Positions 2,993-53,160 of a DNA stretch of 64,000 bases are shown one piece after another. The notes below the pieces were generated by a model that worked only from the letters and a program-made list of their open reading frames with translations, was not told where the DNA came from and did not search any database. The stretch's first letter is position 1. Every line of letters begins with the position of its first letter. The position numbers were made by a program, and so were the translations under genes. This stretch comes from an uncultured Candidatus Saccharibacteria bacterium (GTDB lineage Bacteria; Patescibacteriota; Minisyncoccia; Phycocordibacterales; JAACPR01), in the NCBI GenBank assembly GCA_964618845.1, contig CAZUCU010000001.1, forward strand, positions 468-64,467. The letters are read 5' to 3'.

Positions 2993-4078
2993 ATGGATAT
3001 AGAAAATAAAAAAGTTTTAGTAGGTTTATCGGGAGGAGTAGATTCGTCTGTTGCTTGTTTGTTGCTCAAAGAACAAAAATATTCTGTAGAAGCTGTATTT
3101 ATTAAAGTTTGGCAACCTGATTTTATTGAATGTAATTGGCGAGAAGAGATGCGAGATGCAATGCGAGTTTGTATTCAGCTTCAAATCCCTTTTCATTTTT
3201 TAGATTTAGAAAAAGAGTATAAAAAGAGGGTTGCGGATTATTTTATAAACGAATATAAAGCAGGTAGGACCCCAAATCCAGACGTAGTATGTAATAAATA
3301 TATTAAATTTGGTCACATGTTTGATTATGCTAAAAAAAATGGATTTGATTTTGTGGCTACAGGACATTATGTTAGAAATCTAAAAAATAAACTTTTTCGT
3401 GGTAAGGATTTAGACAAAGACCAAAGTTATTTTTTGTGGTCGCTTACCAAAAAAAGATTAAATAAGATTTTGTTTCCAGTAGGAGATTTAAATAAAGAAG
3501 AAGTTAGAAAAATTGCAAAAAAACATAATTTATTCAATTCTAAAAAAAAAGATTCGCAGGGTATTTGTATATTGGGCCCAATTAATATGAAAGATTTTTT
3601 AAAAAAATATATTGATGTCAAAAAAGGTGATGTTTTAGATAAAAGTGGTTCAATTATAGGAACGCACGAAGGTGCAATTTTATATACTATTGGTGAAAGA
3701 CATGGATTTACAATCGATAAAAAACATAAGAGTTCGAGTGATAAAACCCTGTATGTAATAGAAAAAGATGTGGCAAAAAACATAATTATTGTTTCAACGA
3801 GAAACGAGAAGCGAGAAGTAAGAAATATTGAATTGAAAGATGTTTCGTTTATAGATAAAGAAGTTGAGGGAGAAATAGAAATTCAAACAAGATATAGACA
3901 AAAGCCACAAAAAGGAATTTTATTAATAGATAAAAGGGAGAAGCGAGAAGTAAGAAGTAAGAAGTGGAAATTAGAAGCAAATTTTGAAGAAGACCCAGCC
4001 GTTGGGCAATCTGTTGTTTTCTATAAAGGCGATGAGTGTTTAGGTGGAGGAATTATAGATAAAATATTTTTTGAATAA
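2993..4078 (+). CDS. mnmA: tRNA-specific 2-thiouridylase MnmA
   Basis: PP-loop motif VLVGLSGGVDSSVA at the N-terminus. Conserved GHY and cysteine-containing segments of MnmA. 361 aa. Contains in-frame insertions derived from GAGAAGC repeats (EKREVRN and REKREVRSKK). Confidence 0.85.
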   Translation: MDIENKKVLVGLSGGVDSSVACLLLKEQKYSVEAVFIKVWQPDFIECNWREEMRDAMRVCIQLQIPFHFLDLEKEYKKRVADYFINEYKAGRTPNPDVVCNKYIKFGHMFDYAKKNGFDFVATGHYVRNLKNKLFRGKDLDKDQSYFLWSLTKKRLNKILFPVGDLNKEEVRKIAKKHNLFNSKKKDSQGICILGPINMKDFLKKYIDVKKGDVLDKSGSIIGTHEGAILYTIGERHGFTIDKKHKSSSDKTLYVIEKDVAKNIIIVSTRNEKREVRNIELKDVSFIDKEVEGEIEIQTRYRQKPQKGILLIDKREKREVRSKKWKLEANFEEDPAVGQSVVFYKGDECLGGGIIDKIFFE

Positions 4079-4082
4079 ATTT

Positions 4083-4706
4083 TTAGGTTCTCGGATCTGT
4101 TTTTTTCCATTCAATAATTTTTCCAGCTTTTATTTCCATTTTATCTGCTTTCCTTAAAAATTTTTTATTTTTTGGGGGGTAAAATCTTTTATGTGGACTT
4201 TTCTCTAATGCCTCTGCAATCTCAAAAAGTTCTTTTTTACTTGTTATCCACTTAGTTCCAAACCTTCTCATATCAAAGGGTAAAGAATAACTTTCTAAAA
4301 TTTTTTTACCGGTTTTGATATCAAAATATTCATGAAAATAAGAAAGTGCTAATTCTCTGATTGTCTTATAAACGGGATCACGAAATCGAAGAGTCGCATG
4401 ATTAGTTTTGCTTATTGCTCCCCAATGTCCATTTATCTTATAAATAGCCAAAGTATGGTCATCTCCACAATCAGATTTTAAGTCTAATATATAAGATTTT
4501 TGCTTATTAATCCAAAAACATAAAACAGCAAACATTGCTCCCTCCAAACAATGCGCTTTATTTTTTTGGAGAACTCTTTGGGGTGACATATAAGTTTCAC
4601 CATCTTTTTCCCAATTTATTGGTATGGTATCCAAAAAACTTTGAATTTTGATCGGAGTATTTATTTTTTTTAAAATTTTAATTTCTTCTTTTGTAAGTCC
4701 AAACAT
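4083..4706 (-). CDS. Putative transglutaminase-like cysteine peptidase domain protein
   Basis: Cys-His-Asp arrangement resembling the TGc core: KAHCLEGAMFAV, GDDHTLAIY, RFRDP. Confidence 0.4.
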   Translation of the reverse strand: MFGLTKEEIKILKKINTPIKIQSFLDTIPINWEKDGETYMSPQRVLQKNKAHCLEGAMFAVLCFWINKQKSYILDLKSDCGDDHTLAIYKINGHWGAISKTNHATLRFRDPVYKTIRELALSYFHEYFDIKTGKKILESYSLPFDMRRFGTKWITSKKELFEIAEALEKSPHKRFYPPKNKKFLRKADKMEIKAGKIIEWKKTDPRT

Positions 4707-4745
4707 ATATTGATGTTAACAAAAAATCATTTATACTAAAAGTCC

Positions 4746-5144
4746 ATGAAAAAATATGAGCCAAAGAATTTTAAGCTAAAAGTAAAGAAATCAAAAACCG
4801 GACTTGGTCTTTTTGCTGATGAAAATTTATCAAAAGGTCAATGTGTAATTGAATATGTTGGTAGAGAGATTTCTGAAAGAGAAAAATATACAAGTAGAAG
4901 TAAATATTTATTTGAAATAAATTCAAAGATAACTATTGATGGGCAAGATAGAAAAAACAAAGCTAGATATATTAATCATTCTTGTCGCCCAAATTGTGAA
5001 ATTAAAATAAAAAATAAAAAAATCTTTGTAATGTCTCTTAAAAAAATAAAAAAGGGAGAAGAATTAACTTATGACTATGGAGAAGAATATTTTGATGAAC
5101 ACATAAAACCCAAAGGTTGTAGATGTTGCAAGTGTTATAAGTAG
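4746..5144 (+). CDS. SET-domain protein (putative protein-lysine methyltransferase)
   Basis: Canonical SET motifs INHSCRPNC and ELTYDYG. Cys-rich post-SET tail CRCCKCYK. 132 aa. Confidence 0.8.
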   Translation: MKKYEPKNFKLKVKKSKTGLGLFADENLSKGQCVIEYVGREISEREKYTSRSKYLFEINSKITIDGQDRKNKARYINHSCRPNCEIKIKNKKIFVMSLKKIKKGEELTYDYGEEYFDEHIKPKGCRCCKCYK

Positions 5145-5167
5145 AGAGGTTGTTTTTTTCTATTTTC

Positions 5168-5176
5168 TGTTATAAT
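5168..5176 (+). promoter_or_regulatory. Extended -10 element TGTTATAAT, 8 nt upstream of the ATG at 5185 (leaderless-type promoter)
   Basis: TGnTATAAT consensus match. Part of the recurrent TCTGTTA(A/T)AATA motif. Confidence 0.5.
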
Positions 5177-5184
5177 AGCCTTGT

Positions 5185-5661
5185 ATGAAGAAAGGCGTAT
5201 TTATTTTCGTTGTTTTATTAATAATTTCGATTTTATTTATAATTTTTTCTCTATTAAAATTTCAAAAAAATAACAAATTAGAACCCGTATCTAGAGAGGA
5301 AGTACAAAACATCACCGAGGAAGAACCATTTGAATCTTTGGTTGTTAAACATCAATATAAAGATAACAAACATATTTTTGTTGGGGATTTACAATTACCA
5401 ACACCCTGTCATGAATTTGAAGTAAAGATTGAAGACACAAATGACCCAAATATTAAAAATATAAATTTTTTTACTAAACAAAATAATGAACAAGAAACTT
5501 GCGCTCAAATAGTAACACCAAAGGCTTTTCGTATTGAATATACAGGACCGGAAAATTTAGAATTTAAAGCTTTTATAGACAAAATTCCACGAAGATTAAA
5601 TATTTTTAATTTAGCACCAGATGTAGATATTGATGAATTTGAATTATTTATAAAGGGGTAA
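5185..5661 (+). CDS. Hypothetical membrane-anchored / secreted protein
   Basis: N-terminal hydrophobic segment VFIFVVLLIISILFIIFSLL followed by a hydrophilic domain with two Cys. 158 aa. Confidence 0.5.
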   Translation: MKKGVFIFVVLLIISILFIIFSLLKFQKNNKLEPVSREEVQNITEEEPFESLVVKHQYKDNKHIFVGDLQLPTPCHEFEVKIEDTNDPNIKNINFFTKQNNEQETCAQIVTPKAFRIEYTGPENLEFKAFIDKIPRRLNIFNLAPDVDIDEFELFIKG

Positions 5662-5664
5662 ATT

Positions 5665-8225: not shown

Positions 8226-8246
8226 TCCTGTCTAAATATCTAAACT

Positions 8247-8258
8247 TCTGTTAAAATA
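8247..8258 (+). promoter_or_regulatory. TCTGTTAAAATA extended -10-like motif, 3 nt upstream of the ATG at 8262
   Basis: Member of the recurrent motif family. Confidence 0.4.
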
Positions 8259-8261
8259 TAA

Positions 8262-9350: not shown

Positions 9351-9354
9351 ATTT

Positions 9355-10716: not shown

Positions 10717-10753
10717 ATTGACTGTATTAAAATAATTATATATAAATTATTCA

Positions 10754-15306: not shown

Positions 15307-15310
15307 GTGT

Positions 15311-15339
15311 TTACAAAAACATTTTTTTGTCTTATAATA
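15311..15339 (+). promoter_or_regulatory. Sigma-70-like promoter TTTACA-N17-TATAAT upstream of dnaK
   Basis: Near-consensus hexamers with 17-nt spacing. Followed by GAAGTGAAAAGT and a triple CTTCTCG tandem repeat (15391-15412). Confidence 0.45.
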
Positions 15340-15390
15340 CGCCCACTAATTAATAGCAAGGAGTAAGAAGTGAAAAGTGGGAAGAATTTG

Positions 15391-15412
15391 CTTCTCGCTT
15401 CTCGCTTCTCGC
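15391..15412. repeat. Tandem heptamer repeat (CTTCTCG)x3 in the dnaK 5' region
   Basis: Seen directly. The same GAGAAGC-family motif occurs at 3798-3825, 3946-3970 and 37342-37383. Confidence 0.8.
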
Positions 15413-15430
15413 TTTTAACTTTAAATATAT

Positions 15431-20150: not shown

Positions 20151-20537
20151 ATGCTAAAGGATTTTGATAGTTGGAATCTAATAAAGAAAAGAATAGACCT
20201 AGAAAATAGGGTACCTATTAGGGTTGGTGAGATATTTTGGTGTAAGCTTGGTCTAAATATTGGTGTTGAACAGAATGGAAACGAAAAAGAATTTACTAGA
20301 CCAGTTATAATTATAAAAAAATTCTCAAATCAAATTGTTTTAATTGCTCCATTAACAACCAAACCCCATAAAGGCAATTGGTATTTAGAAAAAGATATTC
20401 TTGGAATTAAACAACAAATAATCCTAAATCAAATCAAACCAGTTGATGTTAAAAGGTTAACAAAAAGTTTGGGAGAGATATCTGAAAAAGAAGTTCAACT
20501 AATATTATATGAGTATTTTAAATTGCTTATTCTTTAA
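20151..20537 (+). CDS. PemK/MazF-family toxin-like protein (putative endoribonuclease) with no recognisable antitoxin partner
   Basis: GEIFWCKLGLNIGVEQNGNEKEFTRPVIIIK ... IAPLTT resembles the MazF/PemK signature (GxIxxxDxxP...RPxxVxS...xxPxTS). 128 aa. Confidence 0.5.
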   Translation: MLKDFDSWNLIKKRIDLENRVPIRVGEIFWCKLGLNIGVEQNGNEKEFTRPVIIIKKFSNQIVLIAPLTTKPHKGNWYLEKDILGIKQQIILNQIKPVDVKRLTKSLGEISEKEVQLILYEYFKLLIL

Positions 20538-31569: not shown

Positions 31570-31635
31570 TCGAAATCAGAAATATAAAATTCTTCGATCA
31601 GGCTCAGAACAAGCAAATCAGAAATCCAAATATCC
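31570..31635. repeat. GAAATCAGAAAT / CAAATCAGAAATCC purine-rich heptamer repeats (GAAATCC family)
   Basis: Seen directly. Related arrays lie at 39260-39294, 39394-39466 and 53107-53125. Confidence 0.6.
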
Positions 31636-31710
31636 TCTTTTGTGTTTGTATTATTATTTTGTATTTTGTGCTTGGTACTTCGGATTTATTTTTTTACCTC
31701 TCCCCCAGAC

Positions 31711-31762: not shown

Positions 31763-32200
31763 TTAATTACTGTTCATCGCAATACCTTCACCTTTGTTCC
31801 AACATTTGGAAGATGAATACCAGGGTTTTAATCCTTGAGTTTCATATAAATGTTTTGCATAAGCAAGGTTTCCTTCGAGAGTATAAATGTCGTGACCTAA
31901 TTTTTTGGAATTTTCTAAATGAAAATATTCATTTATTTGCATGATCCCAACATCTAATCGATTTTTCACACCTCGTAGGGTATTTCCATTCGCATCGAAT
32001 TGATTGTATTTTGATTCGCAGAATGCGACTTTTGAAAGTATTGGTGTATTTGTGAAGTACTCTTTGACAGTTTCTTCAACTGTTTTGGGCTCTTCCAAAG
32101 CCTCGTTCTTGATGCTCTCATCAACAGTCGTTGTTGATGCGACGCTATCAAGGCTTGCGATATTTACTGAGTTAGCTCCTGTTACAGATGCTACAAGCAT
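31763..32200 (-). CDS. Lytic transglycosylase (SLT/lysozyme-like) domain protein, secreted
   Basis: AFCESKYNQF ... GIMQINE matches the SLT catalytic E-S ... G-[LI]-M-Q-I block. 145 aa. Confidence 0.55.
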   Translation of the reverse strand: MLVASVTGANSVNIASLDSVASTTTVDESIKNEALEEPKTVEETVKEYFTNTPILSKVAFCESKYNQFDANGNTLRGVKNRLDVGIMQINEYFHLENSKKLGHDIYTLEGNLAYAKHLYETQGLKPWYSSSKCWNKGEGIAMNSN

Positions 32201-32458
32201 CGCAAGTCCGATAGTAAATTGTATAATAAGCCTACTTTTAACTGTAATCTACACATGCAACCCTATATGGAGTGTAGGTTTTGAGTTATTTTTAGATTAT
32301 GGATTTTTATTCCAATTCTATTATCTTCAATCAAATTTTATTGATTCAAGCCCTGTTTACAGGCCCCAAAACTAAAGTTCGGTGTGCTTAACCGAACAGT
32401 AAATATTGTACCATATTTTGAATTATAATCAACATTACACTATTAATTTAATGTATTG

Positions 32459-32818
32459 TCAATGCTCAAAATATGGCTTAAAACCTGCCTTTTCTGCTTC
32501 TTCTTGACTTTTAAAATAAATTCTATTCTTCTCAGAAAGAGAATTTGCTCGATTTGAGTCTATTTGATAATAGTACTTTCCTCTGCTTGAAGCGACAAAT
32601 AAAAATATACTTGATGAAGTTGCAATTTTTTCTTCTTCGGTTTGTTTAGATTCACTAATTATTATAATTTTTTCTTCTTTACTCAATACTTTATTCCATA
32701 CAAAAAATATACCTATCGTTAAAAATAATAAATAAAAACCAATATCAACAAGCATTTCCATAATAATTTTTCTTTTAAAAAGTCGCTTGATTTTTATTAT
32801 TTGTTGTATTAGAATCAC
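32459..32818 (-). CDS. Hypothetical small membrane protein
   Basis: TM FYLLFLTIGIFFVW. The C-terminal NRIYFKSQEEAEKAGFKP resembles the Ada N-terminal metal-binding fold but lacks all Cys ligands. Confidence 0.4.
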   Translation of the reverse strand: MILIQQIIKIKRLFKRKIIMEMLVDIGFYLLFLTIGIFFVWNKVLSKEEKIIIISESKQTEEEKIATSSSIFLFVASSRGKYYYQIDSNRANSLSEKNRIYFKSQEEAEKAGFKPYFEH

Positions 32819-32887
32819 AGAACTTAGTATAAAACATTAAGGTTAAATTCTGATAAATAAAAGATTAAAAAATTATAAAACAAGATT

Positions 32888-33166
32888 ATGTCAAAAGTTA
32901 AAGCCGGTGGAACAGCTAAAAACCTCAGAGATTCAGGACCAAAATATTTGGGAGTAAAAATTTCTGACGGTCAAAAAGCCAAAAAAGGAAACATCATAGT
33001 AAAACAAAGAGGTACAAAATACCTTCCTGGGACAAATACAATGATCGGCAAAGATCATACTATTTTTTCAATTAAAGATGGGGTTGTTAAATTTTCAACA
33101 AAAAGAAAAACCAGATTTGATTCAAAAAAAGTTACAAGAAAATTAGTTGAAGTTATATCTAAATAA
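32888..33166 (+). CDS. rpmA: 50S ribosomal protein L27
   Basis: AGGTAKNLRDSGPKYLGVK ... KQRGTKYLPGTN signature. Confidence 0.9.
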   Translation: MSKVKAGGTAKNLRDSGPKYLGVKISDGQKAKKGNIIVKQRGTKYLPGTNTMIGKDHTIFSIKDGVVKFSTKRKTRFDSKKVTRKLVEVISK

Positions 33167-33182
33167 GTAAAGATTGATTTTT

Positions 33183-33614
33183 TTATTTTATTTCTAAAGT
33201 AAAACTTCCCTCTTTGTTTTTACTTTCCATAGGAATTTTATATATACCCACTTCTCTAATTTCTGGCATTTTAATTATTTCTTTTGCTTCTTTGTTTTCT
33301 ATAACCCGCAACACCTCGTCTAAATGAAGTTTAGAGAACATATGTCCCTTATCATTTTTTGCTACTCCAAGTTCAAAACTCTTACCATTTAATGAATCAA
33401 TAATCAAATTTAACTTTGCTATCTGGGTATTTTTTTCTTCTTCTAATGCAGACTTTTTTGTCTCAATGTTGGAAATTGCACTCTCTGAAGCTTCAATCGC
33501 TAATCCTTTTGGTAAAAGCAGGTTAAGAGCATAACCGGTCTTGACCTCTTTGATATCATCCTTTTTCCCCAAATTTAGTACATCTTTTAATAGAATTATT
33601 TTCATTCTGCTCAT
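33183..33614 (-). CDS. rplI: 50S ribosomal protein L9
   Basis: [37 protein letters not shown]-terminal domain of L9. Confidence 0.85.
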
Positions 33615-33619
33615 AGAGC

Positions 33620-34867
33620 CTACTTTAGCATTTCAATAGCTTTTTGCAACTGAATATCTATACCTTTATCAAATTTATCCTTATCAAATTTAACCTTAAA
33701 ATTAGGTTCTAATCCCCCATCCGAAATAGATTTGCCGTTTGGAGTTAACCATTTGGCAATGGTTACTTTTAAAGATGTCTCTCCATTTATACTTAATAAT
33801 TCTTGTACAGAACCCTTACCAAAGGTGGTTTCACCAACAAGTTTTGCTACGCCGTGTTCTTCTAATGCACCAGCAACTATTTCAGAAGCTGAAGCAGAAC
33901 CTCCATCAATTAAAACTACCATTTTCAAATTTTTGGTAAAAATATCATATCCTTTACTTCTAAAAATCTTTTGTTCCCCCTCATCTCCAAAATCTTCTAT
34001 TACTATTGATTTACCAACTGGTAAAAACCAGCTTGCAATATCAATTGCGCTCTCCAAAAAACCACCAGGGTTGCCTCTCAAATCTAAAATTAATTTATTT
34101 TTTTTCGATTTAATAAATTGTCTGAGAGCATTTCTAAAATCATAACTCGATGAAGAAGTAAAATTATATAAACTTATAACAAAAACATCATCAATAGTTT
34201 TTGTTTCAAGAGTAGGTATAGTTATCTTATCTCTCATAATTTCTATAAGAATTGGGTCTTTTTCTCCTTCTCTAATAATCGTAAGCCCAACCGCAGTTTT
34301 TTGGGGACCTCTTATTTTTTTTATTGCTTCATCAACAGTAATATCCATAGAGGTTTCTCCATCAATTGCAATTATTTTATCTCCGCTTTTTATGCCAGCT
34401 TTTTCTGAAGGAGAATTTTTAAGCGGAGAAACCACTGTTAAAAACCCATCTTTGAAACCGACCTCCATCCCAACCCCCTCAAATGTTCCAGAAATTGTTT
34501 CCTCAAATTGTTCACTTTCTTCTGGGGGTAAAAACACTGTGTATGGATCACCATAAGATTCAACTAATCCAGATATCGCTCCATAAATTTTGTCTTCATC
34601 CGAAATTTTTTCACCAGAGACAGAAACAAATTTTTCCTCTAAAAGATTGAAGGTTTTCCAAAATAGGTCTAAATTAATGGGTTCACTAGCACTCACCCCA
34701 TTGCTAATATGATTTTTGTTATTTCCAACAAAAAACCCGGTACCAAAAATAAGTACAAACAACATCAAACTAAAAACAATAGTGGCACTTTTTGTATAAA
34801 AATTTTTCATACGAGTATTATAGCAGAAATTTAAAGATTTGAGGATATAAAAAGATATCCCTTTCAT
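33620..34867 (-). CDS. ctpA: Carboxyl-terminal processing protease (S41 family, PDZ-containing)
   Basis: PDZ segment ([13 protein letters not shown]). S41 catalytic region (LRGNPGG ... GSASASEI). N-terminal TM. Confidence 0.85.
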
Positions 34868-34896
34868 GTTTTTGTCTTAGCATTTATAATATATTT

Positions 34897-35826
34897 ATGA
34901 TATATACTCGAAGACATAAAAATATTATTTGGATTGACTTAGATTCACCAACTAGAAATGAAGTTAGAGAACTGATTGAAAAATATGATATTGATCCAAT
35001 TGTTGCCGACGAACTTTTGATTCCGACTCTTAGATCAAGAGTTGATTTGCACGATAATTATATTTATTTAATTTTACATTTTCCTCAAAAAATAAAAGGT
35101 CATAAATACGAAAAAAATTTTAACAAAGAAACACAAGAAGTAGATTTTATTATTGGAAAAAATTTTATAATTACTGCTCGATATGGAGCAATTGATGCGC
35201 TTTTGGAATTTTCAAAAATTTTTGAAGCTAATTCTATTTTGGACAGAAGCAATATTGGAAAACATGCAGGATATGTATTTTATTATATGATTAGAAATAT
35301 TTATAAATCTATGTATGAGGAGATTCAAAATATGAGAGATAAAATCTCTGAATATGAAGAGAAGGTTTTTTCTGGGCAAGAAAGAGAGATGGTTCAAAGC
35401 CTCTCCCAAATGAATCGATTACTTTTGTATTTTAAAGAATCCCTTTTGTTTCATAAAGAAATTTTAATTTCTTTTGAAGAGGCGGGGAAAAAAAATTTTG
35501 AACCAGAATTTACTTACTATTTGCGAGCAGTATTGGGAGAATATTATAAAGTTCAAAATATTCTTGAAAGTTCGAGGGATTATCTTTCAGAAATAAGAAA
35601 TACCAACGACTCATTACTTTCAACTAAACAAAATGAATTTATGAAAATGATAGCAATAATTACTTTGCTAACCTTCCCCACCACTTTAATTTCAAATATA
35701 TTTAGTATGAATACTGAAAGTACACCAATTGTCGGTAAAATGAATGATTTTGTGATTATTGTTAGCATGATGTTTTTATCAGTTGCTATTCTATTTCTCT
35801 TTTTCAAGAAGAAGAGATGGTTTTAG
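34897..35826 (+). CDS. CorA-like divalent cation transporter
   Basis: Cytoplasmic alpha/beta domain followed by two C-terminal TM helices, with an MN motif (FSMN) at the first TM end, reminiscent of CorA GMN. Confidence 0.55.
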   Translation: MIYTRRHKNIIWIDLDSPTRNEVRELIEKYDIDPIVADELLIPTLRSRVDLHDNYIYLILHFPQKIKGHKYEKNFNKETQEVDFIIGKNFIITARYGAIDALLEFSKIFEANSILDRSNIGKHAGYVFYYMIRNIYKSMYEEIQNMRDKISEYEEKVFSGQEREMVQSLSQMNRLLLYFKESLLFHKEILISFEEAGKKNFEPEFTYYLRAVLGEYYKVQNILESSRDYLSEIRNTNDSLLSTKQNEFMKMIAIITLLTFPTTLISNIFSMNTESTPIVGKMNDFVIIVSMMFLSVAILFLFFKKKRWF

Positions 35827-35834
35827 ATTAAAAA

Positions 35835-37247
35835 ATGTTAAAGATAAAAAATACATTAACTGGAAAAATTGAGAATTTTGAGCCCTTAAAAAGGACATTT
35901 TGGGGCAAATCCAAAATCGGAATGTATAATTGTGGTCCAACTGTTTATAGTAAAGCTCATATTGGGAATTTGCGTGCATATATTTTTGCAGATTTAATAA
36001 GAAGAACTCTGGAATTTAATGGGTATAGAGTTAAACAGGTGATAAATATTACTGATGTTGGACACTTAACTTCAAATTCAGATGAGGGAGAAGATAAAAT
36101 TGAAGAACAAGCAAAAAAAGAGAATTTAAAAGCAAAAGAAATAACCCAAAAATATACTGACCTTTTTTTTTCTGATTTAGATAGATTAAATATTGATAAA
36201 AGCAAGATTTTATTTCCCAAGGCCACAGAACACATAAAAGAACAAATTGATATAATAAAAAAATTAGAAAAAAAAGGTTTTACTTATAAAATTTCTGATG
36301 GTATCTATTTTGATACTCTAAAATTTAAAGATTATGGAAAACTTGGAAAGATAGATATCAAAGGATTAGAGGGAGGTGCAAGAATTGAAGTAAATAAAGA
36401 AAAAAGAAATTCAACTGATTTTGCTCTTTGGAAATTTACTCCACGACAAAACTCGAGGCAAGGTGGCAGACAGCAAGAATGGAAATCTCCTTGGGGTATA
36501 GGTTTCCCTGGGTGGCACTTAGAGTGTTCTGCTATGAGCATGAAATATTTGGGAGAGACTTTTGATATTCACACGGGAGGAATTGATCATATTAACACTC
36601 ATCATAATAATGAAATTGCTCAATCGGAAAGCGCTACTGGAAAAGCTTTAGCAAAGTATTGGATGCATGTAAATCATATTCAAATAAACGGAGAAAAAAT
36701 TTCTAAATCAATAGGTAATGTGGTATATCTTGATGAACTTGAATCAAGGGGATATACTTCAATGAGTTATAAATATCTTTTACTTACCGCTCACTACTCT
36801 ACTCTTTTGAATTACACTGAGGAAAATTTAAGGGCTTCTCAAAAAGCTTTGTTTAGGATTTATAGTTTTCTTTTAGGAGTTACCAGTGATCAATTATCAG
36901 AGATCAGTGAAGATTATTATAAAAAATTTAAAGAAGCAATTAATGATGATTTAAATACGGCGAAAGCCATTGCAATTATTTTTGAATTACTATCAGATAA
37001 AGGAATCTCAAATCAAGATAAAAAAACAACAATATTGAAGTTTAATAAAGTTTTAAATTTGGGGTTTGATAATCCAATAATTTTAAAAACAGAAATACCA
37101 GAAGAAGTTTTAAACCTTGCAAATGAAAGACTAAAAGCGAGAAAAAATAAAGATTTTGTAGAATCAGATAAATTGAGAGAAAAAATAAAACATTTAGGTT
37201 TTGAAATAAAAGATGTCCCCGAAGGCTTTAAATTAGATAGAATATAA
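35835..37247 (+). CDS. cysS: Cysteine--tRNA ligase
   Basis: MYNCGPTVYSKAHIGNLRAY (HIGH) and KISKS. Zn-binding Cys. 470 aa. Confidence 0.9.
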   Translation: MLKIKNTLTGKIENFEPLKRTFWGKSKIGMYNCGPTVYSKAHIGNLRAYIFADLIRRTLEFNGYRVKQVINITDVGHLTSNSDEGEDKIEEQAKKENLKAKEITQKYTDLFFSDLDRLNIDKSKILFPKATEHIKEQIDIIKKLEKKGFTYKISDGIYFDTLKFKDYGKLGKIDIKGLEGGARIEVNKEKRNSTDFALWKFTPRQNSRQGGRQQEWKSPWGIGFPGWHLECSAMSMKYLGETFDIHTGGIDHINTHHNNEIAQSESATGKALAKYWMHVNHIQINGEKISKSIGNVVYLDELESRGYTSMSYKYLLLTAHYSTLLNYTEENLRASQKALFRIYSFLLGVTSDQLSEISEDYYKKFKEAINDDLNTAKAIAIIFELLSDKGISNQDKKTTILKFNKVLNLGFDNPIILKTEIPEEVLNLANERLKARKNKDFVESDKLREKIKHLGFEIKDVPEGFKLDRI

Positions 37248-37341
37248 AGACTATTTTTATCTTGAGATTTAATACATAAAATAACAAATAAAACAATGTG
37301 TTTTGATAAATTTGTCAAATTTGATTTTTCCCCAATTCATC

Positions 37342-37383
37342 CACTTTTCTTAAACTTTTCACTTCTCGCGGTTCTCTTCTCGC
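37342..37383. repeat. GAGAAGC-family motif cluster upstream of dnaB (reverse orientation relative to the copy upstream of dnaK)
   Basis: The reverse complement reads AGCGAGAAGAGAACCGCGAGAAGTGAAAAGTTTAAGAAAAGTGG. It shares GAGAAGTGAAAAGT with 15370-15385. Confidence 0.6.
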
Positions 37384-37401
37384 TATGATAACATTACATT
37401 T

Positions 37402-38763
37402 ATGAATTCATTAAAAATCCCACCACAAAGTCAAGAAAGTGAGAAAGCTTTAATTGGAGCAATTTTGCTTCGACCAGAAGCAATTTATGAAATTATGGAT
37501 ATGATTTCTCCCGAAGCATTTTATGCCACCAAAAATAAACTAATTTTCCAAACAATGCTTGAACTGATCAGTAAAGGAATAGAGATAGATTCTGTTTCTG
37601 TCTCCGAAAAACTTCGAGAAAAAGGAAATTTTGATAAAACAGGAGGAAAATCATATATAGCAGAACTTTTGGACTCTGTTCCCTCTTCCTCTAATATTAA
37701 ACATTATGCAAATATAATTTTAAAGAAAAAATTAATGCGAGATCTTTTAGAAGTAGCTGATCATTTATCTTTTCTGGGTTATGAAGAATCAAAAGAAATT
37801 GAAGAAATATTAGATGAAGCCGAAAAAAAAGTTTTCTCTGTTACAAATTTAAAAACTACAAAAAATTATATTGAACTCAAAAAAGCTCTTGGTGAAGCAT
37901 TTGAAAGATTGGATAGACTACATAAATCAAAAGAAGATTTAAGAGGTATACCTACTGGTTTTGCTGGGCTTGATAATTTACTCTCTGGATTTCAAAAATC
38001 AGATTTAATAATTTTGGCAGCTCGTCCCTCTATGGGAAAAACCTCTCTGGCTTTAGATATTTCAAGAAAAGTTGCATTAAATTATAAAATTCCTGTAATA
38101 TTTTTTTCTCTTGAAATGAGTCACGACCAACTGGTAGATAGGGTTTTGGCAGCTGAATCTGGTGTTAATTCTTTTAATATTAGACGAGGGAAGGGACTTA
38201 AAGAACAGGATTTTGAAAATATTGGTAATGCGATATCACGACTTTCTGAAGCACCGTTTTTTATAGAAGATACCTCTGGATTAAATATTATTCAAATGAA
38301 ATCAATGATTCGAAGAATTATTTCTGAAAAATTTAAAGATGGGGATAGAGGTTTAGTAGTTGTGGATTATTTACAACTTATGACACCAACAAATTCTCGA
38401 ATTGATAATACCGTAGCTCAAATTACAGAAATTTCTAGATCACTAAAAGGTATGGCAAAAGAATTTAGAATTCCCGTTATTGCTCTTTCACAACTTTCAA
38501 GAGCAGTAGAGTCAAGAGGTGGAAAACCTCGATTATCAGATCTGAGAGATTCTGGCGCAATCGAACAAGATGCCGACGTTGTTATGTTTATTCATCGAGA
38601 AGATAAATATAACGAAGAATCTAATAAGCCAAATATTGCGCAGATTCTAATTGAAAAACACAGAAATGGACCAACGGGTCGAGTTGATCTCTATTTTGAC
38701 GAAAAGAAAACAACCTTTGTTGATATAGATAAAACTCACAGTAATCTTCTTGAAAATTTTTAA
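37402..38763 (+). CDS. dnaB: Replicative DNA helicase DnaB
   Basis: SQESEKALIGAILL N-terminal domain. Walker A (ARPSMGKTS). RecA-like C-terminal domain. 453 aa. Confidence 0.9.
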   Translation: MNSLKIPPQSQESEKALIGAILLRPEAIYEIMDMISPEAFYATKNKLIFQTMLELISKGIEIDSVSVSEKLREKGNFDKTGGKSYIAELLDSVPSSSNIKHYANIILKKKLMRDLLEVADHLSFLGYEESKEIEEILDEAEKKVFSVTNLKTTKNYIELKKALGEAFERLDRLHKSKEDLRGIPTGFAGLDNLLSGFQKSDLIILAARPSMGKTSLALDISRKVALNYKIPVIFFSLEMSHDQLVDRVLAAESGVNSFNIRRGKGLKEQDFENIGNAISRLSEAPFFIEDTSGLNIIQMKSMIRRIISEKFKDGDRGLVVVDYLQLMTPTNSRIDNTVAQITEISRSLKGMAKEFRIPVIALSQLSRAVESRGGKPRLSDLRDSGAIEQDADVVMFIHREDKYNEESNKPNIAQILIEKHRNGPTGRVDLYFDEKKTTFVDIDKTHSNLLENF

Positions 38764-38772
38764 ATTTAAAAT

Positions 38773-39381
38773 ATGAATATTATTGACGAACTAACAGAAT
38801 TATTTAAGGAATTTCCCGGGATTGGTCCGCGTCAGGCCCGAAGATTTGTTTACTATTTACTTAGAAAAAACGGGGATTACATAAACAAAATAGTCACCCT
38901 CATTCCAGAACTGCGAAAAAAAACTAAAACTTGTAATGAGTGTTTTCGATTTTTTTCTTCCCCGTCTTCTAAATGTAGTATTTGTGAAAATAAAAACCGC
39001 AATTCAAAAATTTTGATGGTTGTTGCTCGAGATTCTGATCTTGAAAATATAGAAAAAACAGATACTTTTAATGGGTATTATTTTGTACTTGGTGGACTTT
39101 TGCCAGTACTTGAGAAAGATAGCAAAAAGCATATTAGACTTAATGAACTTTTAAAACTAATTTCTCAAAAAAAAGATCTTGGGGAAATAATTCTGGCCTT
39201 TCCAGTAAATCCCGAAGGAGATAACACTGCTCAATTTCTTAAAAAAGAAATTGAACAACAAATTCGAAATTCGAAATCCGAAATCCGAATTTCTACATTG
39301 GGAAGAGGACTTTCTACAGGATTAGAACTTGAATATTCAGACAAAGAAACAATCAAAAATGCACTACAAAATAGAAACTAA
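38773..39381 (+). CDS. recR: Recombination protein RecR
   Basis: FPGIGPRQARRFVYYL helix-hairpin-helix. Cys4 zinc finger. Toprim domain. The C-terminus contains repeat-derived IRNSKSEIRIS. Confidence 0.85.
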   Translation: MNIIDELTELFKEFPGIGPRQARRFVYYLLRKNGDYINKIVTLIPELRKKTKTCNECFRFFSSPSSKCSICENKNRNSKILMVVARDSDLENIEKTDTFNGYYFVLGGLLPVLEKDSKKHIRLNELLKLISQKKDLGEIILAFPVNPEGDNTAQFLKKEIEQQIRNSKSEIRISTLGRGLSTGLELEYSDKETIKNALQNRN

Positions 39382-39466
39382 AGAACAAATATAAAATCCG
39401 AAATACGAAATCAGAAATTCAAAACAAATCCGAAATTAGAAATACGAAATTCCAAACACGAGTTTT
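39260..39466. repeat. Two arrays of GAAATYC / CGAAAT heptamer repeats, one inside the recR 3' coding region and one downstream
   Basis: AAATTCGAAATTCGAAATCCGAAATCCGAATTTC (39260-39294) and AAAATCCGAAATACGAAATCAGAAATTCAAAACAAATCCGAAATTAGAAATACGAAATTCC (39394-39466). Confidence 0.8.
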
Positions 39467-39506
39467 AAATTTCTAATTTTGTGCTTAGTGCTTCGAATTT
39501 AATTAT

Positions 39507-39896
39507 CTAGATCTTAACGATCTTAACTTTCATAAAATCTTGTCTGTGTCCCCTTTTTATAAAATATCGAGATTTTGCTTTGTATTTGATAACAACAATT
39601 TTTTTATCCTTTCCTTGTTCTACTAACTCCCCCTCTACAGATGCACCTTTAACATACGGGGTACCAATTTTGATTTCTTTTCCATCATCTATTAATAAAA
39701 CATTATCAAATTTTACTTTATTACCTCCCTTGATTTCACCACCTAATTTTGCAATTTTAATAATTTGACCGACAAAAACAACCATTTGTTTGCCTCCCGT
39801 CTCCACAACCGCATACTCCTTTGCCAAGTTCGTGCTCTTGGCGACAGCGGATTTGTCTTTTATTTTCACTTTCTCTGTTTTAGTTTCTTTTTTCAT
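39507..39896 (-). CDS. rplU: 50S ribosomal protein L21 (with a Lys-rich N-terminal extension)
   Basis: YAVVETGGKQ ... KIVVIKYKAKSRYFIKRGHRQ signature. Confidence 0.85.
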   Translation of the reverse strand: MKKETKTEKVKIKDKSAVAKSTNLAKEYAVVETGGKQMVVFVGQIIKIAKLGGEIKGGNKVKFDNVLLIDDGKEIKIGTPYVKGASVEGELVEQGKDKKIVVIKYKAKSRYFIKRGHRQDFMKVKIVKI

Positions 39897-39940
39897 AAGT
39901 CCTACGATTTTACACTATTTTTAATGTTTTGCAAGAATTT

Positions 39941-41014
39941 TTACCCCTCTACTTTTACACTTTCTTCAATTTGAAGTGGGTCTAATTTTACTTCTCCGTC
40001 TGTAATTCGCACGATATCTTTATCGATTTTTTTAAATTCTTTAGCTGACAAATTATATTGATTTACAACTGTCCCCAAATTTTTTCCAAGCTTATCATGA
40101 TAATCTTCATAGGACTTTAAATGTCTTTGAAGCTCTCCTACATATTTTCTAATCTTTTGAGCTGATTCCTCGATCTTGTAGGCCTTAAAACCAAAAAGAA
40201 CTGATTGTAAATATGCCAAAAAAGTTGTCGGCGAAACTATAAAAACTTTTTTTTCATTGTAAGAATAATCGATTAGACTTCGCGAATTTATAGTTGTTGC
40301 ACCAACTGCTCCTGTAAGCAATTCATAATAAATTCCCTCAGCTGGAATAAACATAAAAGCAAAAGAAAGAGTTCCCTCATTCGGTCTAATATATTTGGCA
40401 GTTTCATCAATTCTTCTTTTTAAATCATTTTTGAAATCTCTTTCAAGTTCTGCTCTTCTAACTTCATCACTTTCATTTACTAAACGAGAATAATTATCCA
40501 GAGAAAATTTAGCATCAATTGGGATAATTCCCTCTTTGGTTTTAATTATTGCATCAACCACATCACCATTTTTGAACATATATTGAAGATCATAAGTAGT
40601 TGGATCCAAGGCGTTTTGTAAAACAAGCTCCAAAGCTGCTTCTCCCCAATTCCCTCTTTGTTTTTGATGTTTCAAAACTTTTTCTAAATTGGAAAGTTGC
40701 TCAGCAATTGTAAACACTTGTTTAGTTGATTGGGAGACTTCTGTTACCCCTTTTGTAACATTTAAAAGTTGCTCAGTCATTTGTTTGTTTATGTCTTGTA
40801 TAAGTTGCTGAGATCTTGCAAATTGTTCAGAAGAAACCTGAGCTACATTTTTTTGAGAATCTTGAATAGACCTATTTACTTCATTCATCTGAGTAAGTAA
40901 CATATTTAAACTCTTTTCATCTTGAGAATCCTTTTTCTTGGTAATCAAAAAAACAACCGCTATAACATTTATAACAAGTAAAATAAGCACGATAACAAGT
41001 AATGTTTCTACCAT
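39941..41014 (-). CDS. rmuC: DNA recombination protein RmuC
   Basis: N-terminal TM, a long coiled coil, and the conserved C-terminal RmuC block (GNWGEAALELVL ... PIDAKFSLD ... FMFIPAEGIYYE). Confidence 0.8.
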   Translation of the reverse strand: MVETLLVIVLILLVINVIAVVFLITKKKDSQDEKSLNMLLTQMNEVNRSIQDSQKNVAQVSSEQFARSQQLIQDINKQMTEQLLNVTKGVTEVSQSTKQVFTIAEQLSNLEKVLKHQKQRGNWGEAALELVLQNALDPTTYDLQYMFKNGDVVDAIIKTKEGIIPIDAKFSLDNYSRLVNESDEVRRAELERDFKNDLKRRIDETAKYIRPNEGTLSFAFMFIPAEGIYYELLTGAVGATTINSRSLIDYSYNEKKVFIVSPTTFLAYLQSVLFGFKAYKIEESAQKIRKYVGELQRHLKSYEDYHDKLGKNLGTVVNQYNLSAKEFKKIDKDIVRITDGEVKLDPLQIEESVKVEG

Positions 41015-44196: not shown

Positions 44197-45078
44197 CTAA
44201 TCAATAGCTTGGAAACACCCAGACAATAATTGCATCGGAGTTTTGAGCTCAATTCCCATGTGCAATCTTTGCTCGTTATAGTATTTCAAATATTTCTCTA
44301 AAGCACAATTAATAACAGAAACGTTTCTTGGAAGAGTGTCTAAACACTCTTCTTGAAGTGTTCTGTTAAATCTTTCAATGTGTGCATTGTCATTAGGTTT
44401 TCCAATTCTAGTGTATCTATGGTTTCTCTTCACTCTGTCATAAAACCATTTTCCAAATTCACTTCCATGATCTGTTTGTATCATTTCAAAATTAAAAACT
44501 GATTGTCTCTCTGCTTCATTCAAAAACTCAACACTTATTGAAGAGTTTAATCTTTCATACGCTTTCGCAAAAGTGTTTCTAGAATAAACATCAATTAAGG
44601 TGAGAACATATATCCTAGTCTTCGGTCCTGTCATAAGGTGTATAGTGTCAATTTGAACCAAAGAACCTGGCTTTATTGGATATGGTCTATCAACAGGAGG
44701 ATGATATCTCTTCCAAGGAGATCTCTTTTTCATAAGTCCATGTCTATCAATTGTTCTTCTAACAGAGTTCAAAGAAACTTGGATATTTTCATTTAAAAGA
44801 TGTTGATGAACAACTTCACTTGTTCTCTTTGTGTCTAATCTGATTTTAATAATTCTTTTAACTACATTTTCTTCTAATTCCTTAGGATGATGATGTGGTC
44901 GTGAAGATTTGGTTGGTATTGGGTGAATACCGAGTTTTTCAGCTTTCTTTACCCATTTACTAATTGTTCCTGGACTTACGCCATATCTTCTAGCAACCGT
45001 TCTAACACCATATCCAATTCGAACCATAGTCGCAGCATCTCTACGAACTTTTGGCATGTTTGGATTATTTGTATACAT
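44197..45078 (-). CDS. IS481-type DDE transposase (rve integrase core)
   Basis: HTH (RYGVSPGTISKWVKK). The rve core spans LVQIDTIHL ... LIDVYSR ... IQTDHGSEF ... HIERFNRTLQEE. Confidence 0.85.
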   Translation of the reverse strand: MYTNNPNMPKVRRDAATMVRIGYGVRTVARRYGVSPGTISKWVKKAEKLGIHPIPTKSSRPHHHPKELEENVVKRIIKIRLDTKRTSEVVHQHLLNENIQVSLNSVRRTIDRHGLMKKRSPWKRYHPPVDRPYPIKPGSLVQIDTIHLMTGPKTRIYVLTLIDVYSRNTFAKAYERLNSSISVEFLNEAERQSVFNFEMIQTDHGSEFGKWFYDRVKRNHRYTRIGKPNDNAHIERFNRTLQEECLDTLPRNVSVINCALEKYLKYYNEQRLHMGIELKTPMQLLSGCFQAID

Positions 45079-45909: not shown

Positions 45910-46401
45910 TCACGCCATTTTTAATTTTGATTTTAGGAGTCGTATGTTGTCGGTATTTCGATCTAATTGATTAGAATGTGAAAGCTGAATTTTTTTGATT
46001 TCTTGAACATCACTTTTTACTTCTTTCATATCTATTTTTAATTCGTGTATATCTTCTTCAACTCTATCAAATTGATTTTTGACAACAATTGTAAAATTTT
46101 CAAAATCTGTTCTTAATTCGCTTATTTCCGATTTCATAGAAACAATACTCTCTTTTATAGAAACAATATCTGTTTTTGTAGAAACAATACTCTCTTTTAT
46201 AGAAACAATATCTGTTTTCGTAGACACAATATCTGTTTTCATAGAAACAATATCTGTTTTTGTAGACAAAATATCTTCTTTCATTAAAGATATATCTTTT
46301 TTCATTGGATTAATCACTTTTTTTGTGTGAACAGCAAAAGCACCATTTATTGAAGTATTAACTATAAAAGAAATTTGTTTTAAATCATTTTTTGTTAACA
46401 T
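45910..46401 (-). CDS. Coiled-coil protein with about eight tandem heptad repeats (TKTDIVS / IKESIVS), encoded by 21-bp DNA tandem repeats
   Basis: Protein repeats KTDIVSMKTDIVSTKTDIVSIKESIVSTKTDIVSIKESIVSMKSEI. DNA repeats span 46135-46290. Confidence 0.5.
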   Translation of the reverse strand: MLTKNDLKQISFIVNTSINGAFAVHTKKVINPMKKDISLMKEDILSTKTDIVSMKTDIVSTKTDIVSIKESIVSTKTDIVSIKESIVSMKSEISELRTDFENFTIVVKNQFDRVEEDIHELKIDMKEVKSDVQEIKKIQLSHSNQLDRNTDNIRLLKSKLKMA

Positions 46402-47576: not shown

Positions 47577-47682
47577 TTTTTCTCCTTTTTTGGGGTTGTT
47601 TCTTGCTCAATATCACCATGATAAAGAACTTCAAGTCGCCTTGATTAATAACACAATTTTTGAATTTTGTAAATACAAAATG

Positions 47683-47711
47683 GCCCCGACCCATTCCATG
47701 GGTCGGGGCCT
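47683..47711 (-). terminator. Intrinsic terminator: 12-bp GC-rich stem GGCCCCGACCCA / TGGGTCGGGGCC, T-run on the - strand
   Basis: Seen directly. Lies downstream of the - strand ORF 47720-48298. Confidence 0.7.
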
Positions 47712-47719
47712 AAAAAGAA

Positions 47720-48298: not shown

Positions 48299-48378
48299 AT
48301 TATTCTCCTGTTTTTCCTCCCAAAGTCTGCCCCTTTTGACAGATTGTTCGGTTGGTCTGCAAAAATTATACTCAATTT

Positions 48379-49671: not shown

Positions 49672-49672
49672 A

Positions 49673-51373: not shown

Positions 51374-51677
51374 TTATAGCAGTTTTTGGATTCTTTTTAA
51401 TAAAAACGATATCAGAAATTTCAACAAAACCATTTTCTAAAGCCATTTCTCTATTTATTGTTCTTTTAACATCTACCATTTGAAATTCTGTTTCACTTAT
51501 TTGTGATTTTATATCAGAAATTTTCTCTTCTAAATTTTGAATACTAATAGCATAAGAGATTGATAATTGATATGAATATATATAAATAAAAATTGAAACA
51601 ACAATAAAAATTATAGACAAAAATGATAAGTTATATGTTGATAAAATATTTATTTTTAGGTTTTTTGTTTTATTCAT
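51357..51677 (-). CDS. ftsL: FtsL-like cell division protein (small bitopic coiled-coil protein)
   Basis: 106 aa. One TM followed by a coiled coil. Position between rsmH and ftsI. Confidence 0.5.
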   Translation of the reverse strand: MNKTKNLKINILSTYNLSFLSIIFIVVSIFIYIYSYQLSISYAISIQNLEEKISDIKSQISETEFQMVDVKRTINREMALENGFVEISDIVFIKKNPKTAINAISN

Positions 51678-52569
51678 ATAATTTTTCTAATATTCTTAAT
51701 TTTGCACTTCTTGATCTTGAGTTATTTTCTAATTCACTTTTCTTCGGAATTATTGGCTTTTTATTAATTCTTTTGGCCCTTTTAGTCTTTTCTTTATGGA
51801 TCATAAATCTTTTTACAATCCTATCTTCTATAGAATGAAAAGAAATTACTAACAATCTGCCTCCCTTTTTTAAGTAATCAAAAGTTTTGTTCAAAGTAAT
51901 AGATAGACCATCAAATTCATCGTTTACAACAATTCTAAGTGCTTGAAAAGTCTTTGTTGCTGGATGAATTTTTCCATAATGATAAAATTTTGGGGTTGCT
52001 TTTTTAATTATATCTACTAATTCAAAAGTGGTTTTTATTTCCTTGGTTTTTCTTTCATCCACAATTTTTTTAGCAATTTTTTTAGCATACTTCTCTTCTC
52101 CAAAACCATAAATAATATCTGCTAATGACTCTTCACTAAAAGTATTAACAATCATCTTTGCTGTTAAATCCGAGGATTCCAGATTCTTTTTCATTGTCAT
52201 AAGTAGTGGTTCATCTTTTTGAAAAGTAAAACCCCTACCCGAAGATTCTAATTGTTCAGAACTAATTCCCAGATCAAGTAAAAATGCGTCAACTTTTTCA
52301 ACACCATTTTTATCTAAAATTTTATCAAATTGAGTGTTAGAGGATTTTTCCAAAATAATTTTAGATTTTGAGTTTTCCAAATAATTAGCAGATCTTTTAA
52401 TAGCATCAATATCTTTATCAATTCCGATTATAATTAGATTATTCAAACCTAATTTAGAAACCGCTTGGCTATGCCCCGCACTACCCAGAGTTAAATCTAC
52501 AAAAACAGCATTATCTTTTAATTTTAGATTTTCTATTACTTCTTGTAAAAGAACAGGTTTGTGTCTCAT
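51670..52569 (-). CDS. rsmH: 16S rRNA (cytosine1402-N4)-methyltransferase RsmH (MraW)
   Basis: MRHKPVLLQEVIENL ... VDLTLGSAGHSQAV SAM-binding block. 299 aa. Confidence 0.9.
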   Translation of the reverse strand: MRHKPVLLQEVIENLKLKDNAVFVDLTLGSAGHSQAVSKLGLNNLIIIGIDKDIDAIKRSANYLENSKSKIILEKSSNTQFDKILDKNGVEKVDAFLLDLGISSEQLESSGRGFTFQKDEPLLMTMKKNLESSDLTAKMIVNTFSEESLADIIYGFGEEKYAKKIAKKIVDERKTKEIKTTFELVDIIKKATPKFYHYGKIHPATKTFQALRIVVNDEFDGLSITLNKTFDYLKKGGRLLVISFHSIEDRIVKRFMIHKEKTKRAKRINKKPIIPKKSELENNSRSRSAKLRILEKLYE

Positions 52570-52571
52570 GT

Positions 52572-53006
52572 TTAAATTGCTCCTATTTCCCCCAATTTTT
52601 CTGCCATTTGATCAGCATTCTTGGTAACTTGAAATTTGTACTTTTCCCAACTATCTTCATCCCAAACTTCAATTCGATTGTATACACCAGCAAAAACAAC
52701 TTTAGTTTTTATGTTTGCAAATTTTTTTAAATTTTCTGGAATTAATATTCTTCCAACGGAATCAACATTTATTTCTGTTGCTCCTGACAAGAAAAAACGA
52801 TTAAATCCTCTTTTATCTGCTTGTCCCATTCCAAGCTCTCCAACTTTGGATGCAATTTTTTCCCATCCTTTAACAGGATAGATAAAGAGACAATTATCTA
52901 ATCCTTGTGTAATGATTAATCTTTTTCCAAGCACACTTCTAAACTTACTAGGAAGTGAAATCCTTTTTTTTTCATCAAGTGTGTGTTTGTACTCTCCGAT
53001 TAACAT
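52572..53006 (-). CDS. mraZ: Transcriptional regulator MraZ
   Basis: MLIGEYKHTLDEKKRISLPSKFR. Duplicated SpoVT/AbrB-like halves. 144 aa. Confidence 0.85.
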   Translation of the reverse strand: MLIGEYKHTLDEKKRISLPSKFRSVLGKRLIITQGLDNCLFIYPVKGWEKIASKVGELGMGQADKRGFNRFFLSGATEINVDSVGRILIPENLKKFANIKTKVVFAGVYNRIEVWDEDSWEKYKFQVTKNADQMAEKLGEIGAI

Positions 53007-53160
53007 TTCATATATTTACCACTTTATCCCACTTGATTAATATTATAACCCACTATTTAACATTTTGCACAAATAGTTATCCACAGCATAAGACGAAGCG
53101 CAAAATAAAAAATTCAAAATTCAAAATAAAATTTATTTTCTTTTTTTAGTGAGAACTGAT

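Follow-up and report, generated by a model that had tools for sequence, protein, structure and literature searches.

Tandem heptanucleotide repeats of two unit families, GAGAAGY (family A, four loci) and CGAAATN (family B, three loci), were found in a 64,000-nucleotide stretch of DNA from an uncultured Candidatus Saccharibacteria bacterium (GenBank assembly GCA_964618845.1, contig CAZUCU010000001.1, positions 468 to 64,467 of the forward strand; hereafter the window). We estimated a probability of about 65% that these arrays are lineage-specific heptanucleotide simple sequence repeats (SSRs) that were born by slippage, are now fixed and act, if at all, as arms of RNA hairpins. All of the array sites that a sequence-only reading of this DNA had listed were present in the sequence, and they are given here in window coordinates.

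2993-4078, the mnmA gene, in which both of the following arrays lie in frame
3796-3825, plus strand, family A array 1 in mnmA (AACGAGA AACGAGA AGCGAGA AGTAAGA AAT), encoding TRNEKREVRN
3932-3967, plus strand, family A array 2 in mnmA (GAGAAGC GAGAAGT AAGAAGT AAGAAGT), encoding DKREKREVRSKK
15390-15414, plus strand, family A array upstream of dnaK, (GCTTCTC)x3.6
37342-37383, minus strand, family A array upstream of dnaB, with the purine units on the minus strand and pyrimidine-rich on the dnaB sense strand
39260-39294, plus strand, family B array in recR (AAATTCG x4.9), encoding IRNSKSEIRIS
39394-39461, family B array downstream of recR, with CGAAATN-type units
31571-31584 (CGAAATCAGAAATA) and 31613-31626 (GCAAATCAGAAATC), plus strand, two short two-unit family B pieces 3' of a FemAB-family gene
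53107-53127, plus strand, weak AT-rich array upstream of mraZ, (AAAATTC)x2.7, with 17/21 lag-7 matches

Thirty exact period-7 runs of at least 14 nt were observed, against 10.9 ± 3.1 expected from an order-2 Markov model, and six of at least 18 nt, against 0.23 expected. Four 21-nt windows had at least 18 lag-7 matches (0.05 expected), and two-unit patterns with no more than three mismatches were found 14 and 23 times, when 2.2 and 8.6 were expected. The motif GCGAGAAG occurred nine times (0.56 expected), and the 12-mer GAAGTGAAAAGT had one copy per strand, at 15367 upstream of dnaK and, inverted, at 37365 upstream of dnaB (0.00-0.02 expected). When periods 4-6 and 8-12 were scanned likewise, no comparable excess was seen in the window. 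Order-2 Markov sequences and dinucleotide shuffles served as null models, and neither ever reached the observed counts; a composition-only origin was rejected by the shuffle controls, and the earlier claim that the motifs go beyond base and codon composition held, since the excess over both controls was restricted to period 7. Arrays at 3796, 3932, 15390, 39260, 39394 and 53107 were 2.7-5 units long, that at 53107 being a marginal 2.7-unit case. Noncoding DNA makes up 10% of the window yet held six of the nine arrays. With head-to-tail units in excess over composition, the arrays have the properties of long heptanucleotide SSRs, and one unit was re-used at separate loci, as in dispersed unit-specific heptamer families.

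At least eight other sequencing runs yielded the same species, with nucleotide identities of 98.7-100%, giving three to eight independent assemblies for each array compared. The arrays were present in these independent assemblies, showing that they are genuine and not artefacts. Unit number was invariant in all assemblies compared for the mnmA, dnaK, dnaB, recR and recR-downstream arrays, over a divergence of up to 1.3%. The dnaK array and its hairpin (below) were identical in three assemblies of the species, and the dnaB array did not vary among five assemblies and a second strain type (strain B, about 99.0-99.3% identity), in which mnmA array 2 also had the same length. Polymorphism in unit number was found solely at 31650-31690, where the assemblies L040 and L047 were short by one heptamer and carried six clustered substitutions against a background of 0.4%. 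In strain B, six to seven of the ten differences in 38773-39442 lay in or beside the family B arrays, an approximately 10-fold excess of substitutions, and these changes made the arrays more regular. Family B arrays outpace their surroundings by substitution, consistent with unit homogenisation or relaxed constraint. The strain comparison showed that unit number has by now become all but fixed, at 3-5 units per array, with no on/off switching.

Syntenic relatives with 60-73% protein identity had no array at the sites of mnmA array 2, recR, the dnaB upstream region or the recR-rplU spacer; in the relative L001 (RecR 72% identical), none was found upstream of dnaB, in recR or 3' of recR. The arrays were shown to be lineage-specific at the orthologous sites compared. 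Only two period-7 arrays, both of other units, were seen among 13 related loci totalling about 240 kb. Relative L004 (19467-19522, minus strand) has (ATTGCTA)n directly 5' of AAGGAG and ATG. Another relative, L172 (19708-19800), carries (GGGATAA)n and, after it, a complement rich in pyrimidines, in the interval that separates a peptidase gene from mraY; this pair folded no better than shuffles. Three family A units, searched as a 21-nt pattern, hit at least 120 metagenome contigs, whose GC contents ranged from 24 to 74%, and some contigs with GAGAAGC-type arrays carried an inverted partner beside the array. In IMG/VR viral contigs, (GAGAAGC)3 was found in 11, two permuted-unit controls in 5 and 8, and (CGAAATC)3 in 22. 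We therefore rejected the idea that the GAGAAGC unit is special in itself, the permuted units being about as frequent; heptamer triples of any unit are common in nature. Two further observations concern the metagenome contigs. In six of them with 46% GC (L072, L077, L095, L137, L141 and L151), many loci of one organism had (GAGAAGC)4-15 after a stop codon and before a terminator hairpin of the form GGTTGACG...CGTCAACC, and many others contained several different heptamer units concatenated.

The array upstream of dnaK is one arm of a predicted leader hairpin, to which the following features belong.

15310-15338, plus strand, sigma-70-like dnaK promoter TTTACA-17-TATAAT, 11/12 consensus matches
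15357-15384, plus strand, purine arm preceding the dnaK array (AAGGAGT AAGAAGT GAAAAGT GGGAAGA)
15359-15416, plus strand, predicted dnaK leader hairpin, in which the purine arm pairs with (GCUUCUC)x3.6, ending 17 nt before the ATG

The predicted hairpin has 24 pairs, six of them G·U, and leaves the start codon uncovered. Its folding energy was -29.5 kcal/mol (z -5.6) on the plus strand, the sense strand of dnaK, vs -21.7 on the minus strand; for this hairpin and for the recR-rplU hairpin described below, the fold was far more stable than those of shuffled sequences and favoured the strand that is sense for the neighbouring gene. TGnTAtAAT-like -10 boxes stand 4-9 nt 5' of the ATG at many window genes (e.g., 750, 5185, 8262, 24368, 39941-41014 and 53323-54798) and Shine-Dalgarno sequences are nearly absent ahead of the genes, so the mRNAs of the window are probably mostly leaderless; unlike these, the predicted dnaK leader is 86 nt long and structured. 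The few AGGAG-type sites were concentrated at 46.5-52.6 kb. The dnaK promoter (TTTACA-17-TATAATACGC) is conserved in the relatives L171, L172 and L173, and the hairpin would be transcribed from it. Two of these relatives, L172 and L173, had short leaders of about 30 nt in which the hairpin was not present, in L171 a hairpin of unrelated sequence occupied that position, and the arrangement in the closest relative was leaderless. In this comparison the array hairpin is an insertion into an ancestral leader of about 30 nt, after a conserved AGC. Because the relatives have no dnaK hairpin or an unrelated one, it is young. An upstream open reading frame (ORF) starting from GTG at 15370, after AAGGAG, was set aside as a weak candidate, since the genome does not use Shine-Dalgarno sequences. 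No match to the CIRCE/HrcA operator (TTAGCACTC-N9-GAGTGCTAA) was found in the window with up to three mismatches allowed, and an Rfam scan of the whole window at gathering thresholds returned a single tRNA, with none of the arrays matching a known family.

The dnaB array abuts a TATGAT -10-like box and likewise ends 17 nt before the ATG. When it was folded, no partner arm and no hairpin were found. Both the dnaK and dnaB arrays terminate with TTCTCGCT exactly 17 nt 5' of the ATG.

Between the convergent genes recR and rplU, the 125-nt spacer consists entirely of a family B array and its diverged complement. The complementary arms at this site and at 31.6 kb had been missed by the sequence-only reading; both are complementary to the neighbouring family B arrays and would turn them into hairpins.

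39466-39505, complementary arm pairing with the family B array 39394-39461
39394-39505, minus strand, inverted family B array pair in the recR-rplU spacer, predicted to form a long hairpin
31650-31690, plus strand, complementary heptamer arm (TTTTGTA TTTTGTG CTTGGTA CTTCGGA)

The fold of 39394-39505 had -31.9 kcal/mol and z -4.4 on the minus strand (rplU sense) vs -19.6 on the plus strand, and a U-rich tract (UUUUAUAUUUGUUCUUU) follows the hairpin on the minus strand. A simple terminator scan did not call it because the stem is long and interrupted. The model fold suggests that it is probably the terminator between recR and rplU; relative L001 has a classical GC-rich hairpin terminator in its spacer instead. 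Seven of nine independent assemblies ended at or inside this array, at 39389-39442 (ends of L037, L038 and L220-L224), which points to assembly ambiguity or a population variant at the hairpin. At 31.6 kb, what had been described as a single array at 31570-31635 turned out to be the two short pieces listed above, which are not contiguous. The sequence GTGCTTnGTnCTTCG is common to the 31650-31690 arm and position 39481, and the two family B elements (31.6 and 39.4 kb) share a 46-nt arm with 76% identity. The array reported at 53107-53125 was present, but its unit, AAAATTC, differs from the CGAAAT type and its membership is doubtful. On the mraZ sense (minus) strand it reads as (TTTTGAA)n, a unit that in Nostoc PCC7120 is reported to precede recF and some 20 further genes (bioRxiv 10.1101/2022.06.06.494920); the match may be a coincidence, given the AT-rich unit.

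Within mnmA, arrays 1 and 2 are identical at 20/21 nt and lie in the same frame, yielding the peptides EKREVRN and EKREVRS. In the MnmA alignment, array 2 added 12 codons relative to a 69%-identical orthologue (P0002), at a site where other MnmA orthologues also carry unrelated insertions, and array 1 replaced a variable linker with a net length change of zero. In RecR, the array lengthened a variable loop by 2-4 residues, and its last unit falls on the conserved IKIS motif. A T-to-C change in strain B made this array a perfect (CGAAATC)3 and produced S166P. The in-gene copies were lineage-specific and stood at variable sites of MnmA and RecR in the ortholog alignments, as had been proposed; a net insertion was borne out in mnmA for array 2 alone, array 1 bringing no gain in length, and the recR array added no more than the 2-4 residues. 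In an AlphaFold model of MnmA (mean pLDDT 88.6), array 1 fell in loop 269-275 and the start of a strand (10-residue block, pLDDT 77) and array 2 formed the beta-hairpin loop 314-323 (block pLDDT 65). Both blocks were the least confident parts of the C-terminal barrel, and that of array 2 was the lowest. A third look-alike in mnmA (3139-3167) was rejected as coincidental; in the alignment it encodes the invariant residues WREEMRDAMR. At the same beta-hairpin loop as array 2, the mnmA orthologue P0003 of relative L168 (3302-3400) carries a 37-nt palindromic insert (CATGCCCCGTGATGGTGAAACCATTTTACGGGGGGAG) bounded by a 10-bp direct repeat (AAGGGAAAAG), and a second, GC-rich insert is found in its preceding loop. 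Reading the units in all six frames showed (GAGAAGC)n and (CGAAATC)n to be free of stop codons. Arrays could survive inside genes because their units lack stops in every frame and because their sites are surface loops whose length varies among orthologues; the best-supported reading of the encoded segments is that they are harmless loop residues in MnmA and RecR.

These results suggest the following origin. Short purine-rich seeds would have been amplified via replication slippage or template switching, and one unit would then have been re-used at several loci through local duplication or gene conversion. Where a direct array lies beside an inverted one, the transcript is computed to fold into a long G·U-rich hairpin, to which a function may be ascribed. 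One such hairpin was inserted into the otherwise short conserved leader of dnaK, and another may take the place of an ordinary terminator between recR and rplU. The hairpins would most likely act as RNA, either as a terminator or attenuator or as a leader element affecting stability or initiation.

Several findings weigh against this account. Plain slippage does not explain the recurrence of one unit at four loci or the shared flanks. The 45 nt upstream of dnaB aligned with those of dnaK at a score of 35 against a null of 15.5 ± 2.9 (about 6.7 standard deviations above the null), and the flanks of mnmA array 2 and dnaK were complementary at 83% of positions along 40 nt, 16 of which lie outside the repeat. 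These likenesses, together with the shared TTCTCGCT-17-ATG ends, go beyond plain slippage and are left unexplained by it. The net insert lengths in mnmA and recR (36 nt and 6-12 nt) are divisible by neither 7 nor 21, and the history must therefore have been more complex than unit gain. Folding of the 31.6 kb element was not significantly better than that of shuffles. Dispersal was judged within 64 kb of the genome, which limits its scope, and the promoter, leader and terminator roles are inferred from sequence.

The first alternative is that the arrays before dnaK and dnaB are cis-regulatory. The pyrimidine-rich (GCUUCUC)n would be a putative binding platform for S1-, Csp- or CsrA-like single-strand binders or, in another form, an RNase III-type processing site as in the Haemophilus hmw leader, and would tune chaperone and replication genes. 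We consider this unlikely, while granting it some weight. On the sense strand both arrays are rich in pyrimidines, and they share the TTCTCGCT end at the same distance from the ATG, the two upstream regions are significantly similar, and a structured 86-nt leader is conspicuous in a largely leaderless genome without Shine-Dalgarno sequences. The heptamer arm of dnaK and its complementary arm, with many G·U pairs, resemble the hmw 5' untranslated region (5'-UTR) element (PMC12721329), and comparable proposals have been made for TAACTGA repeats and Nostoc heptamers (PMC4679880; bioRxiv 10.1101/2022.06.06.494920). The contiguous 7-bp period mismatches the helical phasing expected of double-strand DNA binders, and RNA or single-strand binding is more plausible. 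However, there are only two cases, the copies inside genes are left unexplained, the dnaK hairpin does not reach the start codon and no candidate binding protein was identified. Relatives have the same genes without arrays, so any such control would have arisen very recently.

A small non-autonomous motif that moves or recombines, in which an array and a short flank are copied to new sites, some of them in frame within genes, in the manner of Rickettsia palindromic elements, appeared slightly more doubtful. The near-identity of the two mnmA copies in the same frame, the complementarity of mnmA array 2 to the dnaK arm beyond the repeat, the arm shared by the family B elements, the absence of arrays from orthologous sites in relatives and the palindromic insert with direct repeats at the same MnmA loop of a relative all speak for it. 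No copy had terminal inverted repeats, target-site duplications or a constant element length, and unit number and unit variants differed among copies. The flanks are AT-rich, so their likeness carries little information; no transposase accompanies the arrays, to which the rve gene at 44197-45078 has no link; and the same unit forms arrays in unrelated taxa. Of the mobile motif that the sequence-only reading had suggested, some flanking similarity between copies remained, but the terminal inverted repeats and target duplications of such an element were missing.

We hold as improbable, though worth stating, the broader idea that the arrays form a young, lineage-specific post-transcriptional layer in an organism with mostly leaderless mRNAs and no Shine-Dalgarno sequences. 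CU-rich heptamer tracts 17 nt before the dnaK and dnaB start codons would recruit a putative single-strand-binding factor or a double-strand RNase, the dnaK tract would be masked by its complementary purine arm, and stop-free heptamers would feed new peptide loops in essential proteins.

It is very improbable that the arrays are hypermutable contingency loci whose unit number often changes and switches or tunes expression. The heptamer indel with clustered substitutions at 31650-31690, the substitution excess in the family B arrays of strain B and the break of seven of nine assemblies at the 39.4 kb array would suit such loci. However, unit number was constant at the other five arrays over up to 1.3% divergence, the arrays are short (3-5 units), and a change of one unit would cause a frameshift in mnmA or recR, which are conserved housekeeping genes. 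The adjoining or host genes (mnmA, dnaK, dnaB, recR and rplU) are also housekeeping and not surface or virulence genes. Phase-variable contingency loci were rejected on both unit number and gene location, and the earlier suggestion of slipped-strand hypermutable tracts was not upheld, as strains differed by one heptamer indel only. A chance outcome of purine-rich codon usage and low GC can be practically dismissed: the coincidental look-alike coding for invariant residues (3139-3167) and the marginal AT-rich array at 53.1 kb are compatible with it, but neither order-2 Markov sequences nor dinucleotide shuffles ever matched the observed counts and period 7 alone was enriched.

The window has a GC content of 29-30%, and the nearest homologues of its MnmA, GrpE and RecR are proteins of uncultivated Patescibacteria/Paceibacterota. 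Its housekeeping content includes ribosomal proteins, rpoA, grpE-dnaK-dnaJ, cell-wall genes, cysS-dnaB-recR, rplU and the mraZ-mraW cluster. Other genes stand among this set, namely those for a SET-domain protein (4746-5144), a PemK-type toxin (20151-20537) and an HNH endonuclease beside an N6/N4 DNA methylase (60728-62173). Cumulative GC skew was maximal at about 32000-40000, where gene orientation shifted from mainly plus to mainly minus, as expected near a replication terminus. An ORF at 45910-46401 (minus strand, 163 residues, with weak coiled-coil matches) holds a 21-bp tandem repeat of about nine copies (46082-46333). It adjoins an rve-family integrase gene (44197-45078), local GC is 38% vs 29-30% elsewhere, and the region is probably a mobile island. 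In cysS (36454-36459), a +1/-1 indel pair five bases apart recoded about two codons between strains.

The arrays extend the bacterial preference for 7-nt units, which is still unexplained, to the candidate phyla radiation with its reduced genomes, and they offer a clean natural case of heptamer repeats that are fixed and not phase-variable. They are predicted to build transcript hairpins that replace ordinary leaders and terminators, and they yield extra loop residues in conserved enzymes. Should the arrays upstream of dnaK and dnaB turn out to control these genes, they would give rare access to gene regulation in an uncultivated organism with leaderless mRNAs. Otherwise the finding serves chiefly as a warning when such genomes are annotated or assembled, since contigs of the species repeatedly break at one array (39.4 kb).

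Mrazek and co-workers, whose 2007 survey is summarised in PMC4679880 and PMC4692102, identified heptanucleotides as the most abundant long SSR units in most prokaryotic genomes and proposed a tie between the 7-nt preference and the length of DNA held by the polymerase; the polymerase-slippage idea for heptamers is summarised in the same two papers. Compared with the long-SSR class as outlined in those summaries, the present arrays are alike in their tandem 7-nt units that exceed composition, their intergenic enrichment and their presumed slippage origin, and differ in being short (3-5 units) and essentially invariant between strains. To our knowledge, long heptanucleotide SSRs have not been described for Patescibacteria.

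Unit-specific dispersed heptamers are known from Calothrix/Nostoc and Xanthomonas (cyanobacterial STRR and the GGGAATC type), with inverted pairs able to form stem-loops (PMC4692102). In Beggiatoaceae, TAACTGA arrays lie beside start codons, with occasional copies at protein peripheries, and S1, Csp or CsrA were proposed as binders (PMC4679880); Nostoc heptamers near recF and recO were proposed to affect expression (bioRxiv 10.1101/2022.06.06.494920). The arrays of the window resemble these families in the re-use of units, in sites near starts or between convergent genes, in inverted pairs and in occasional in-gene copies that fall at the edge or in variable stretches of the protein, and function is established for neither. 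In contrast to them, the GAGAAGY and CGAAATN units are stop-free in six frames and have no G-quadruplex potential, and they occupy few loci within 64 kb.

In structure, the dnaK leader comes closest to that of Haemophilus influenzae hmw1A, where a (ATCTTTC)n arm in the 5'-UTR pairs with a G-rich arm and RNase III cuts the hairpin (PMC12721329). Both have a pyrimidine-rich heptamer array, a purine- or G-rich arm and a leader hairpin upstream of the start, predicted in the case of dnaK. The hmw1A array has at least 11 units, is variable and controls an adhesin, whereas that of dnaK has 3.6 units, is invariant and is known here from sequence prediction.

Rickettsia palindromic elements also lie in frame in housekeeping genes, where they are tolerated as extra peptide segments; they are palindromes of 100-150 bp with defined ends. 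The in-gene arrays described here are instead direct heptamer repeats of 30-36 nt without a partner arm. Set beside these systems, the arrays are best read as members of the already known class of bacterial heptamer SSRs.

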